64,000 nt of DNA, taken from positions 2,944,001 through 3,008,000 of the forward strand of contig CM000153.2 of NCBI GenBank assembly GCA_000004695.1. Reading direction: 5' to 3'. Under the pieces are notes generated by a model. That model was given only the letters and a program-made list of their open reading frames with translations, did not search any database and was not told the origin of the DNA. A program made the position numbers and the translations under genes. The DNA comes from Dictyostelium discoideum. Taxonomy: Eukaryota. This document shows, piece by piece, positions 33,540-35,900 of this stretch (positions are counted from its first letter, which is position 1; every line of letters starts with the position of its first letter).

Positions 33540-34560
33540 TTATTATTATTATTAATGTGGTAAAATAAATAAATAAATAAAAATTTAATAAATTATTTCA
33601 ATTTATGATAATATCAATAATAAAACATTAGTGATAATAATTATTCAATGGAAAAAAATAAAATTGATTTCTATTTTTAACTTCACCACCTCGATTTGAT
33701 TTGGTTTGCTCTGAAAAAAAAAAAAAAACCAAAAAATGAAAAATTAAAGTGCATAAATAAAAAAAAAAAAAATTACTTGCACAAGTGCACCACGCTAATT
33801 TCTTTTAAAAAAAAAAATAAATAAAAAAATAAAAAATAATTAAATTTGATATCAACAACAACAAATTATTATTATTATTGTTATTATTATTATTATTATT
33901 ATTATTATTATTATTATTATTATTATTATTATTATTATTATTATTATTATTATTATTATTATTATTATTATTATTAAAATTATTATTAAAATTATTATTA
34001 TTATTATTATTATTCATTTTTTTATTTATTTTTTTAATATAAAAAGATACACACATACTCACACTAAAAAAACACACAAAAACATTTTCAGTTGAGAGTG
34101 TTAACTTTGTTGTGATATTATTTTCATATTTTTTTTATCATAAATGAAATAATAAAAAGCTCACTGCTTAAACGTTTCTAGATATTAAAATAAAAAAAAT
34201 AAAAAAATTTAAATCAAAAATAAAAGAATTATAATAATTAGTTTTTAATAAAAAAAAGTGGAAAATTTTTTTTTTTTTTTTTTTACATATATTAAAATCA
34301 GAATAATATGAATTATTCGTATGGGAATTACTAAGGAATATTAAAAAGGAAAAAAATTTAAAAATAAAAATAATGATTTTTTCATTTGATTATTTCATTT
34401 GTTATTGTTTAATATTTTAATAATAATAAAAAAACAAAACAGAACAAATAATAAAAATATAAAAAATAAAAAATAAAATATAATTGTAATTATATGTATT
34501 ATCAAATTTTTTTTTCTATTTATGGGGGTGTTTGGGGATTAAAAAAAAAATTTTAAAAAA
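33540..34560 (+). repeat. Copy A of a ~1 kb direct segmental duplication (partner 34990..35900); it contains an (ATT)n microsatellite.
   Basis: Direct visual alignment of shared blocks in the same order: ttattaatgtggta[at]aataaataaa, caataaattatttcaattt, atttctatttttaacttc, gcaccacgcta[ag]tttcttt, and the core aaaaagatacac...aacatttcagttga..gt.ttaactttgttgtgatattattttcatattttttt.atcataaatgaaat..t.a..aa.ctcactg.tt.aacgtttctagat.ttaaaataa. Confidence 0.8.
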
Positions 34561-34989
34561 AAATAATTAAAAAATAAATTTTATATCTATCTTTATCAAA
34601 TTGCTAATTTGAAATTCATTTTTTTGATCGTCTGTTAATAATTCCATTTTTATTTAATATTTGTACATATAAAATATGTTAAAAAACATCCATTTTGATA
34701 TTTTTAATTTAATTTAATTTTTTTTTTTTAAAAGAGTAAATAAAATTATTTTTTTTTTTTGTTGGAATTCAAAGAATCATCTGAAAAATAAAAAATACAA
34801 AGATATTTAACTAGAAATGATGCCAGTCAAGGATAATGAATAAGCGAGTGCAGCTAGGCCGCTAATCCAGTGAGGAAATAGAGAACGTCAGCTCATTTGG
34901 AGTAAGGAGGCAATAAAAAAAAATAGAAAAAAAAAAAGAAAATAGTATTAAAAAATTGATAAAAAAAAAAATATACAAAAAAAAAATAA

Positions 34990-35900
34990 AAATTATTAAT
35001 AATATTATTAATGTGGTATAATAAATAAAAATACAATAAATTATTTCAATTTTTTTAAATACCAATGGAAAAAAAAAAAAAATAAAAAAAATTTATTTTT
35101 ATTTTTAACTTCTTCATCTAGATTTGATTTCTATTTTTAACTTCCCCATCTTGAATTTATTAGCTCTGAAAAAAAAAAAAAAAAACTACATGCACCACGC
35201 TAGTTTCTTTCAAAAAAATAAAATAAATATAAAAATAAATAATAAGATTAATAACAACAACAACAACAACAACAACAACAACAACAACAACAACAACAAC
35301 AACAACAACAACAACAAATTATTAATTTAATTATTATTTTTTTCTTTTTTTTTTTTTTTTTTTTTTTTTTTTTTTAATAAAAAGATACACCTCAAAAACA
35401 TTTCAGTTGACTGTATTAACTTTGTTGTGATATTATTTTCATATTTTTTTATCATAAATGAAATTATTAAGAAACTCACTGATTGAACGTTTCTAGATTT
35501 TAAAATAATATAAAAAAATGAATTCAAATAATTAGTTCTTATTTTGAAAATGAAAAAAAAGTGGAATTTAATTAATTAAATTTTTTTTTTATTTTTTTTT
35601 ATTTTTTTTTTTTGGAAATGATTGGCTATGGCCCAAATGGAAAATAAAAAAGGAAAAAAATTAAAATAAGAATTTTTTCATTTCATAAAGATAATGATTG
35701 ACTCAACCCAATTATTGTTTAATATTTTAAACTTAAATTTATAATAAAAAAAAAAAAAAAAAAAAAAAAGAAAAAAAATAAAATTAAAAAATAAAATAAA
35801 ATAAAAATAAAAAATTAAGTTGTAATGTGTTATCAAAAATTTTTTATTTTTTTATTGGGGTAAAAAAAAAAAAAAAATAAAAAAAAAATAATTAAAAATT
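34990..35900 (+). repeat. Copy B of the ~1 kb direct duplication; its microsatellite is (CAA)n rather than (ATT)n.
   Basis: See copy A. The block order is conserved with about 80-90% identity. The internal microsatellite differs in motif (CAA vs ATT). Confidence 0.8.

Follow-up and report, generated by a model that had tools for sequence, protein, structure and literature searches.

A lineage-specific tandem duplication of non-coding intergenic DNA in Dictyostelium discoideum and the uneven evolution of its two copies

A direct duplicate pair is present in gene-free, A/T-rich DNA of D. discoideum, in which two copies of a unit of about 1.2-1.4 kb stand head-to-tail and are collinear. Because two copies are found in all of the D. 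discoideum isolates compared and one in D. firmibasis, the pair represents a lineage-specific tandem duplication and not a mobile element. Comparison of the aligned loci shows that the event is younger than the split from D. firmibasis but older than the divergence of the present-day D. discoideum isolates. The explanation that we favor, with reasonable though not high confidence, is a tandem duplication of non-coding intergenic DNA after which copy 1 would have kept an ancestral regulatory function, while copy 2 would be redundant and decaying.

The duplicated unit and its setting

The unit sits within 5.9 kb of gene-free DNA that lies upstream of a PH-domain gene, in the chromosome of D. discoideum carrying dhx15; the helicase ORF is 100% identical to DHX15 of D. 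discoideum AX4, and the window is AX4-like. The results from BLASTN analyses of the window, i.e., the whole 64 kb stretch of DNA that was analysed, with the low-complexity filter on, pair 33977-34578 with 35316-35903 (E value 3e-69) and 33450-33864 with 34912-35266 (E value 7e-39). In a global alignment they are collinear as well. The two collinear direct copies reported in the first-pass annotation (33540-34560 and 34990-35900) are thus present at that place and low complexity does not account for their similarity, although both left starts lie some 80-90 bp further left, at 33450 and 34912. The identity of 80-90% given there applies only inside ungapped blocks (85-92%). When gaps are counted it falls to 64-69%, with 69% in the left part and 64% in the right part, the core having 89%. 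The coordinates of all features are collected in Table 1.

Table 1. Features of the duplicated unit (positions are those of the window)
Feature	Position	Strand	Remarks
Copy 1	33450..34578	+	Slow-evolving, most ancestor-like; collinear with copy 2; exact D. firmibasis match at TTTCAGTTGAGAGTGTT
Copy 2	34912..35903	+	Fast-evolving, eroding; collinear with copy 1
Possible copy 1 extension	34579..34805	+	Weak alignment to 35904-36090 and to D. firmibasis L002 ~6490-6390
Possible copy 2 extension	35904..36090	+	Clear orthologue of D. firmibasis L002 from ~6565 downward
Junction piece	34806..34912	.	107 bp, 44% GC
Conserved block TGCACCACGCTAATTTCTTTT, copy 1	33786..33806	+	Copy 2 partner 35191-35211
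(CAA)4 then (ATT)54, copy 1	33853..34026	+	TRF and pairwise alignment; (ATT)54 itself 33865-34026
(AAC)21.7 then short ATT remnant, copy 2	35253..35340	+	TRF; (AAC)21.7 itself 35253-35317
CA-rich element	34039..34077	+	Three CACAC, after T-rich tract; shorter in copy 2
Core, copy 1	34078..34192	+	103/116 columns same as copy 2
Core, copy 2	35392..35506	+	11/106 (L006) and 10/107 (L007) differences from orthologues
G-rich box TATGGGGGTGTTTGGGGATT	34520..34541	+	Near copy 1 end; GGGGGTGT found in D. firmibasis

The copies may extend to ~34805 and ~36090, as Smith-Waterman z-scores of 8.8 and 10 against mononucleotide shuffles were obtained for the weak alignments of the copy 1 extension to that of copy 2 and to D. 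firmibasis L002. The homology of the two extensions to each other is uncertain, since they are near saturation, with fixed differences in 34 of the 87 complex columns (39%). Both boundaries of the unit adjoin long A-runs (33353-33451, 34913-34992 and 36065-36101), and an unequal exchange or replication slippage between A-tracts, which would fit such boundaries, may have formed the pair. A 107 bp piece lies at the junction of the copies. Nothing similar to this junction piece turned up elsewhere in the window or at the loci of D. firmibasis and D. purpureum, and when 23 consecutive bases of it were sought in contigs from metagenomes and prokaryote genomes there was no exact match. Its fold z-scores are -0.4 and -0.65. 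In the isolates L006 and L007 it is about 20% diverged and contains deletions. The head-to-tail copies, the single copy in the sister species, the A-run boundaries and the conservation of one copy beside the faster evolution and the erosion by indels of the other are all features of lineage-specific tandem segmental duplications. In contrast, the junction piece with its 44% GC and an uneven fixed divergence that hints at later gene conversion are not what a simple duplication of this type displays.

Each copy also has changes of its own. Copy 2 contains an internal tandem duplication of 32 bp (35091-35161; TRF), and about 50 bp missing from the AX4-type copy 2 are still there in copy 2 of L006 and L007. 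The first-pass annotation had described a microsatellite whose motif switched from ATT in one copy to CAA in the other. No such switch took place, as in both copies an ATT run comes immediately after a CAA run and only the expansion differs, being that of ATT in copy 1 and of CAA in copy 2. The CAA expansion of copy 2 is specific to the AX4-type sequence, L006 and L007 having only 4-5 CAA units there, and the length of the ATT run of copy 1 differs among isolates.

No gene is called at the duplication in three annotations, nor in D. firmibasis. A conserved ORF is likewise lacking, the 66-aa ORF of copy 2 being broken in copy 1, and a Pfam search of the small ORFs gave no matches and no transposase or reverse-transcriptase remnant. 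None of the 4227 Rfam families matched the window or four related loci at gathering score, and the E-value mode returned only two chance-level matches in 31000-37600. No tRNA was detected by the tRNA scan, hence there is no tRNA-linked TRE context. The genes of Dictyostelid class I RNAs and other DUSE-driven ncRNAs are preceded at ~60 nt by the DUSE, with the consensus [AT]CCCA[CT]AA, and the 11-nt motif of the class I RNAs is CCUUACAGCAA. The DUSE is absent from 31000-37500 (in the whole window it occurs 5 times, with 10.7 expected), and the class I motif, allowing up to 2 mismatches, is absent inside the units. Neither single-sequence folding (z -0.69 and -1.75) nor a six-sequence alifold, with energies of -6.55 and -2.04 kcal/mol to which covariation contributed almost nothing, revealed an unusual or covarying fold. 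The best hairpin in the units reaches -0.19 kcal/mol/nt, from A/T pairing, and is not a stable one. The ncRNA that had been suggested for the core has no support, with neither an Rfam match at gathering score nor a covarying fold nor a stable hairpin. A reading as miRNA precursor was also rejected: there is no hairpin, and the chromosome 4 miRNAs of Table S1 (PMC6161686) are all outside the window.

Origin of the duplication and evolution of the two copies

Over 33024-37300, the assembly GCA_054883475.1 differs from the window by only 4 homopolymer-length indels, and both copies are also found in L006 and L007, which are 8-9% diverged in this region. Being present in independent assemblies, the duplication is not an assembly artefact. 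In D. firmibasis (locus L002), the order of the flanking genes is kept around an intergenic region of 4.7 kb, and the syntenic site contains a single diverged counterpart of the unit with one TTTCAGTTGAGAGTGTT and one ACCACGCT. The divergence of this species, 27% at 4-fold sites, exceeds that between the two copies. A recognisable counterpart of the unit was not found in the D. purpureum locus. The locus of D. dimigraforme, a closer outgroup, ends just short of the duplicated unit, and that of D. cf. discoideum, in which synteny is broken beside the helicase gene, was left out of the comparison.

The copies have evolved at different rates since the duplication. Between AX4 and L006 the core of copy 1 differs at 1/108 sites, against 11/106 for copy 2 (Fisher p=0.0025), and between AX4 and L007 the core of copy 1 differs at 3/101 sites, with an additional deletion of 7-9 bp mid-core in L007. 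The 10-12 differences per ~107 sites in the core of copy 2 (11-12 mismatches when counted over 108 columns) are at or above the regional intergenic median of 7-8 per 108 columns, and are as many as separate it from copy 1 (8-10/107). The core of copy 1 is, judged by its surroundings, not exceptional in its conservation, as 8% (AX4 vs L006) and 17% (AX4 vs L007) of the 108-column regional windows are equally conserved. By parsimony, over complex ungapped blocks, 12 terminal-branch changes were assigned to copy 1 and 38 to copy 2. The difference was seen both in the core (1 vs 10; p=0.012) and elsewhere (11 vs 28; p=0.009), and copy 1 is 2.5 to 10 times slower than copy 2. The alignments show that after the duplication copy 1 barely changed and kept short motifs shared with D. 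firmibasis, whereas copy 2 has accumulated substitutions at or above the local background, deletions, the 32 bp duplication and a microsatellite expansion. A regulatory module, one of the functions initially proposed for the core, is plausible for copy 1 only, given its slower evolution and its retention of D. firmibasis motifs; for copy 2 the proposal does not hold.

Differences fixed between the copies are unevenly distributed: the left part has 6/126 and the core 2/92, the right part 15/74 and, as given above, the extension a still larger share. Such a pattern is not expected of one duplication step with uniform decay after it, and suggests that gene conversion occurred later, that the history had two steps or that the right part is misaligned. 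That the left part and the core have few fixed differences may be due to how old the duplication is or to gene conversion after it. We consider it less likely than not that a conversion tract, or else another duplication of part of the unit, has recently replaced the left part and the core of one copy, probably with copy 1 as the donor and copy 2 as the recipient. Such an event alone would make the core look conserved, and it would refine the explanation that we favor rather than replace it. The low values in these two parts speak for it (core vs rest, Fisher p=1.6e-5), and the background rate of the copy-2 core after the split of the isolates implies that selection does not hold that core. 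However, the alignment of the paralogues is least reliable to the right of the core, where blocks with ~50% of "fixed" differences resemble misalignment, and the well-anchored right-hand blocks are only ~11% different in the pairwise alignment. Furthermore, columns that group the copies by strain are absent from the core and number only 2-3 elsewhere, hence no conversion has taken place since the isolates split. With the core of copy 2 changing at the background rate or above and only two fixed differences between the cores, their similarity reflects recent common origin and not selection on both copies. The constraint that had been read from this similarity accordingly fails for copy 2.

The core and the short motifs of the unit

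The core spans about 115 bp and is 89-92% identical between the copies; in wider limits (34065-34199 vs 35378-35514) the identity is 86-88%. It had been described as much better conserved than the surrounding A/T filler, and this is true of indels, since the core has 4 changes in A/T runs, of one to four bases, against 52 gap events in the flanks. It is not true of substitutions, the rate of which is not significantly lower than in the other alignable blocks, either over all aligned columns (8.0% vs 13.0%; p=0.16) or over ungapped complex blocks only (8.6% vs 9.9%; p=0.84). The core is found only twice within the 64 kb window. The block CACCACGCTA likewise has exactly 2 occurrences there, with 0.22 expected. 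In D. firmibasis only one 17-mer and some short patches of the core can be recognised. No other stretch of the unit that is free of slippage-prone runs is as long as the core, and the copies share a recent common sequence. Thus, the core looks conserved because the copies were separated or last homogenised recently and because it is without such runs, and it is not evidence for a gene. In the neighbouring DNA there are islands that are invariant between isolates, and these make better candidates for a function not yet annotated than does the core of the duplication.

Several short elements are shared with other loci. The sequence ACCACGCT occurs once in the intergenic region of D. firmibasis and is also found in L006 and L007. 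In D. firmibasis, a T16 run and then a CA-rich stretch are found at the same relative place as the CA-rich element, 11 bp of which are deleted in L006 and L007. The G-rich box is cut down to TTGGGGT (35858-35872) in the AX4-type copy 2 and is complete in the copy 2 of both L006 and L007. Both the three CACAC at 34050-34077 and the GGGGGTGTTTGGGG at 34524-34537 are shared in kind with D. firmibasis, and clusters of CACAC recur across the intergenic DNA of the window, with 61 of them where 33 would be expected. CA-rich and G-rich elements are of the kind bound in Dictyostelium by the G-box binding factor (GBF). The layout of copy 1, which comprises a T-tract, the CA-rich element, TTTCAGTTGA, ACCACGCT and the G-rich box, may be regarded as promoter- or enhancer-like. 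A T-tract followed by a CA-rich element, together with a GGGGGTGT-type box, would resemble a Dictyostelium Pol II promoter or enhancer, and this arrangement is seen in copy 1 and in D. firmibasis. Unlike in such a promoter or enhancer, copy 2 has lost part of these elements and there is no annotated gene start nearby. Based on its slow evolution and its motif content, we propose that copy 1 could carry the ancestral cis-regulatory function of the region.

Alternative functions for the unit and its core

Other readings assign to the core, or to the unit as a whole, a function of a different type. The core of copy 1 might be a functional element specific to the D. discoideum lineage, either a short RNA without structure or a compact cis-regulatory module that acts on the upstream PH-domain gene, which we judge to be unlikely. 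We are similarly doubtful of a reading in which the T-tract and the CA-rich element form the promoter of an unannotated Pol II lncRNA or pri-miRNA-like RNA, the core is its 5' end, and the duplication made two genes. Pol II genes and pri-miRNAs of D. discoideum are reported to have, as a typical feature, T-tracts directly in front of their start sites (PMC6161686), and in both copies a T-rich tract lies directly upstream of AATA(T)AAAAAGATACAC (T39 at 35337-35375 and a T-rich tract at 34001-34036), the T16 run of D. firmibasis being in the same place. However, the sequence downstream of the putative start is quickly evolving A/T filler, and the TATA-like ATATAAAAAG is not kept in copy 2 or in D. 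firmibasis. The hairpins of the unit, at most -0.19 kcal/mol/nt in stability, also fall short of the -0.5 to -0.7 kcal/mol/nt of D. discoideum miRNA precursors (PMC6161686 Table S1).

Much less credible is a box C/D snoRNA-like RNA of ~64 nt encoded by the minus strand of the core (CATTT-ATGATAA ... CTGA-AAATG). The match to SNORD81 (34068-34133, minus strand; E=5.2) is weak, reaching 20.5 bits where the gathering score is 50. In common with the box C/D snoRNAs of D. discoideum, of which 47 have been described (PMC8817022), the minus strand of the core does have a CUGA, a heptamer with AUGAU close by and a short complement at its termini. The D box (CUGA) and a terminal complement of 4-5 bp are found in both AX4-type copies, and CUGA is kept in all seven sequences, with the stem weakened in copy 1 of L006 and L007, where its 3' half reads AAATT for AAATG. 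As a set, however, the features are not conserved among the isolates or in D. firmibasis. The C-box-like AUGAUAA is non-canonical (vs RUGAUGA), is not among the C-box variants that Table S4 gives for CD36-OR9 (PMC8817022), and has become AUCAUAA in copy 2 of L006 and L007, while D. firmibasis is without a C box. The 7-9 bp deletion of L007 copy 1 falls between the boxes. The length of 64 nt is below the known snoRNA size range of 66-113 nt. Moreover, a conserved guide of 10 nt or more, complementary to rRNA, has to end one base upstream of box D or D', and the bases by the D box hold 3 core substitutions and are the most variable part, the invariant stretch being too far upstream. The sequence is not among the described genes and is absent from the supplement, and none of the chromosome 4 box C/D snoRNAs in Table S5 is near (PMC8817022). 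More improbable still are two adjacent insertions of a non-autonomous mobile element, such as a MITE or an element like thug-S or DDT-S. The unit resembles these in being non-coding, roughly 1 kb and repeated, and the core had been proposed as a possible terminus of such an element. The proposal is contradicted by the homologous single copy of D. firmibasis, at the exact syntenic position between the same flanking blocks, and by the lack of a terminal inverted repeat in the core, where 79/300 shuffles score as well as the inverted repeat. Both ends of the unit are A-rich and cannot form terminal inverted repeats, only low-complexity inverted repeats being found. The arrangement is strictly head-to-tail, no third copy is present within the 64 kb window, and exact matches to the core are absent from viral or metagenome contigs.

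Beyond annotation, the tandem duplication that we favor as the origin of the pair matters little. In an intergenic region with 85% A/T, a "conserved core" between paralogues can arise without functional constraint, from recent common origin and the absence of slippage-prone runs, and the test that separates the two explanations is the orthologous comparison of each copy separately. The locus could be used as a small, datable example of non-coding tandem duplication and asymmetric decay in the D. discoideum species complex. If the reading of the copy-1 core as a functional element is true, the locus would be a small natural case of the duplication of a regulatory element followed by asymmetric decay.

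A tandem duplication of non-coding DNA

The locus arose by lineage-specific tandem duplication of non-coding DNA, and its two copies have evolved asymmetrically. It lies within a 5.9 kb stretch without a long ORF, in a window of 22.7% GC. The neighbouring helicase ORF has 100% identity with DHX15 of D. discoideum AX4, which is carried on a 5.45 Mb chromosome. No genes are called in the 5.9 kb stretch in GCA_054883475.1 or in two other D. discoideum assemblies, nor at the syntenic site of D. firmibasis. An assembly gap of 100 N, with very long T-runs on its flanks, is located ~1 kb left of the duplication.

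Features of the duplicated locus and its surroundings (window positions)
Feature	Position	Strand	Remark
PH-domain gene	start ~31310	minus	one side of 5.9 kb stretch
Assembly gap	32388-32487
Low-divergence segments	32649-33248, 36193-36354
A-runs bounding unit	33353-33451, 34913-34992, 36065-36101
Copy 1	33450-34578		possibly to ~34805
(ATT)54	33865-34026		copy 1, TRF
Core, copy 1	34078-34192
Extension	34579-34805 vs 35904-36090
Junction piece	34806-34912
Copy 2	34912-35903		possibly to ~36090
(AAC)21.7	35253-35317		copy 2, TRF
Core, copy 2	35392-35506
41% GC island	36295-36500
156-bp island	36685-36840
630-aa gene	37217-39495	minus	other side of 5.9 kb stretch, 3' end facing it
Helicase ORF	40261-42444

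Comparison of the two halves by BLASTN, with the low-complexity filter on, returned two collinear plus/plus matches, 33977-34578 with 35316-35903 (E value 3e-69) and 33450-33864 with 34912-35266 (E value 7e-39), which confirms the two direct copies described here by the first-pass annotation. The core (34065-34199 versus 35378-35514) shares 86-88% identity, and no third core copy was found within the 64 kb window. With gaps included, a global alignment gave 69% identity in the left part, 89% in the core and 64% in the right part. A weak alignment links the 333 bp separating the copies to the sequence 3' of copy 2 (z 8.8) and to its D. firmibasis equivalent (z 10; mononucleotide shuffles in both cases), suggesting that the duplicated unit may be ~1.4 kb long. 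Because the extension is near saturation (34/87 complex columns differ), its membership in the unit is uncertain.

Precisely where the two copies join lies the 107-bp junction piece (44% GC). Nothing in the window or the related loci matches it, and metagenome and prokaryote genome contigs contained no exact copy of a 23-base stretch taken from it. The piece evolves fast, with ~20% divergence and deletions in the divergent D. discoideum isolates L006 and L007; directly before it, an insertion in L006 (~4395-4420) and at the equivalent L007 site (window ~34805) makes the perfect palindrome AAAAATAAAAAATACAAAGATATTTAAATATCTTTGTATTTTTTATTTTT.

Further genomes were taken from the helicase cluster at 90% identity. 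Over 33024-37300, GCA_054883475.1 departs from the window only by four differences in homopolymer length, and both copies are present in L006 and L007, which diverge by 8-9% in the region; the duplication is therefore real. In D. firmibasis, which differs from D. discoideum at 27% of 4-fold sites, gene order is kept around a 4.7 kb intergenic region, and good alignments extend over both flanks of the unit (31100-33218 and, with 74.6% identity, 35865-36991). Only one counterpart of the unit itself is present there, and it has diverged strongly. It shares CTCGATTTG, ACCACGCT and the GGGGGTGT box with the unit, as well as a T-tract with a CA-rich stretch after it; its 17-mer TTTCAGTTGAGAGTGTT is identical in copy 1 and not in copy 2, and the 3' two-thirds of the core are not recognisable. 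Nothing recognisable of the unit was found in D. purpureum. The presence of two copies in both isolates and one in D. firmibasis indicates that the duplication is older than the isolate split and younger than the D. firmibasis split. In D. dimigraforme, gene order beside the helicase differs, with an extra FNIP-repeat gene and two small genes (L004:855-2508); in D. cf. discoideum the neighbourhood by the helicase is entirely different, and a DDE_Tnp_4 transposase gene lies at the locus edge.

Conservation of the core in each copy

The core had been regarded as much better conserved than its surroundings, which suggested constraint. Within the AX4-type sequence, this holds for indels and not for substitutions. 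Substitutions are not significantly fewer in the core, whether all aligned columns (9/112 versus 87/668 elsewhere, p=0.16) or ungapped complex blocks (8.6% versus 9.9%, p=0.84) are considered. Gap events number 4 in the core, each a 1-4 base change of an A/T-run, versus 52 in the flanks, including 24 with G or C. GC content is highest in the core, where homopolymer runs also take up the smallest share (0.21-0.26 versus 0.36-0.49), and the Poisson chance of zero complex indels there is ~0.02 before correction for roughly eight windows tested.

The decisive test was the comparison of each core copy with its own orthologue in the isolates. Copy 1 differs from that of L006 at 1/108 positions and from that of L007 at 3/101, versus 11/106 and 10/107 for copy 2 (Fisher p=0.0025 for the L006 comparison). 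Copies 1 and 2 differ from each other at 8-10/107 positions. The regional background per 108 aligned columns has a median of 8 mismatches against L006 (one or fewer in 8% of windows) and 7 against L007 (three or fewer in 17%); thus, the copy-1 core belongs with the better conserved windows, and mismatches in the copy-2 core equal or exceed the median. When complex, ungapped four-way blocks were analysed by parsimony, the core received 1 terminal change on copy 1 and 10 on copy 2 (p=0.012); outside the core the numbers were 11 and 28 (p=0.009), so that copy 2 is faster across the whole unit and not in the core alone. An internal tandem duplication of 32 bp has further arisen in copy 2, from which ~50 bp and most of a G-rich box are gone in the AX4-type sequence; both are kept in copy 2 of L006 and L007. 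Nor is copy 1 strictly constrained, since its L007 core contains a 7-9 bp deletion. Constraint is unsupported for the copy-2 core and only weakly suggested for that of copy 1.

The density of differences fixed between the copies varies along the unit, with only 2 columns in the core (2/92) and 6/126 in the left part, versus 15/74 in the right part and 34/87 in the extension. Given the deficit in the left part and core, these could have been renewed by a gene-conversion tract, or by a further, partial duplication, not long before the isolates separated. The unevenness could also stem from misalignment of the right part, as the well-anchored right-hand blocks differ by just ~11% in the pairwise alignment. 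Under either reading the similarity of the cores is explained by recent shared ancestry, after which copy 2 could change freely.

RNA gene, mobile element and microsatellite readings

The proposal that the core belongs to a non-coding RNA found no support. No Rfam family reached gathering score in the window or four related loci, and the permissive mode returned only SNORD81 (E=5.2) and a miRNA family (E=8.9). Folding z-scores were -0.69 and -1.75, and consensus folds of six sequences gave -6.55 and -2.04 kcal/mol without covariation. The best fold of any 120-nt window inside the units is -0.19 kcal/mol/nt; known D. discoideum miRNA hairpins range from -0.5 to -0.7 kcal/mol/nt (PMC6161686). 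Neither a DUSE nor the class I motif was found at the units. A box C/D snoRNA-like RNA of ~64 nt on the minus strand of the core (CATTT-AUGAUAA ... CUGA-AAAUG) was considered and rejected: its C box is non-canonical and absent among the C-box variants given for CD36-OR9 in Table S4 (PMC8817022), it would be shorter than any known one, its guide position falls in the most variable part of the core, and L006 and L007 carry changes in the heptamer, the stem half or the spacing. Table S5 (PMC8817022) lists no chromosome 4 snoRNA gene near the core.

A mobile-element origin is made unlikely by the single copy at the D. firmibasis syntenic site, the strictly tandem arrangement and the presence of only two copies in the window; no significant inverted repeat or coding remnant was found. 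Nor did the microsatellite change its motif from ATT to CAA between copies. Both copies carry CAACAACAACAA followed by ATTATT in the alignment, i.e., two adjacent microsatellites that expanded unequally. The CAA expansion is AX4-type-specific, because two other isolates have just 4-5 units at the copy-2 site.

Origin and neighbouring islands

Unequal exchange or slippage probably produced the duplication, acting between the long A-runs at the unit boundaries. Copy 1 would have retained an ancestral cis-regulatory role, and copy 2 would be redundant and decaying. The layout of copy 1 comprises a T-tract, a CA-rich element, TTTCAGTTGA, ACCACGCT and a G-rich box. A link to G-box binding factor is putative, as is the reading of CAACTG as a Myb-type site. 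CACAC clusters recur across the intergenic regions of the window. Start sites in D. discoideum are typically preceded by T-tracts (PMC6161686).

The non-coding 156-bp island is identical at 156/156 positions between the window and both L006 and L007, against 8-9% background divergence, and shares 85% identity with D. dimigraforme (L004:485-633) and 82% with D. firmibasis, where its 37-aa ORF is broken by a 1-nt indel. No RNA covariation was found in it. Its minus strand reads TTTATAAAG, T7 and GGATTTCC, which resembles the Dictyostelium layout of TATA box, T-tract and start site. The 41% GC island, conserved in D. firmibasis at both ends and not in the middle, has neither a conserved ORF nor an Rfam match; a minus-strand non-coding transcript could be driven from the 156-bp island, with the 41% GC island as its body. 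The two low-divergence segments show at most 1 mismatch per 108 columns against L006, align to D. firmibasis at 70-90%, and are candidate regulatory or non-coding elements of the gene-free region. A DUSE-like ACCCATAA on the minus strand of the D. firmibasis locus (~7076-7083), within a ~900 bp stretch lacking a counterpart in either D. discoideum copy and any Rfam match, is a possible lineage-specific ncRNA promoter.

The duplication is real but ordinary, and the isolate-invariant islands on either side of it are better leads for unannotated function than the core.
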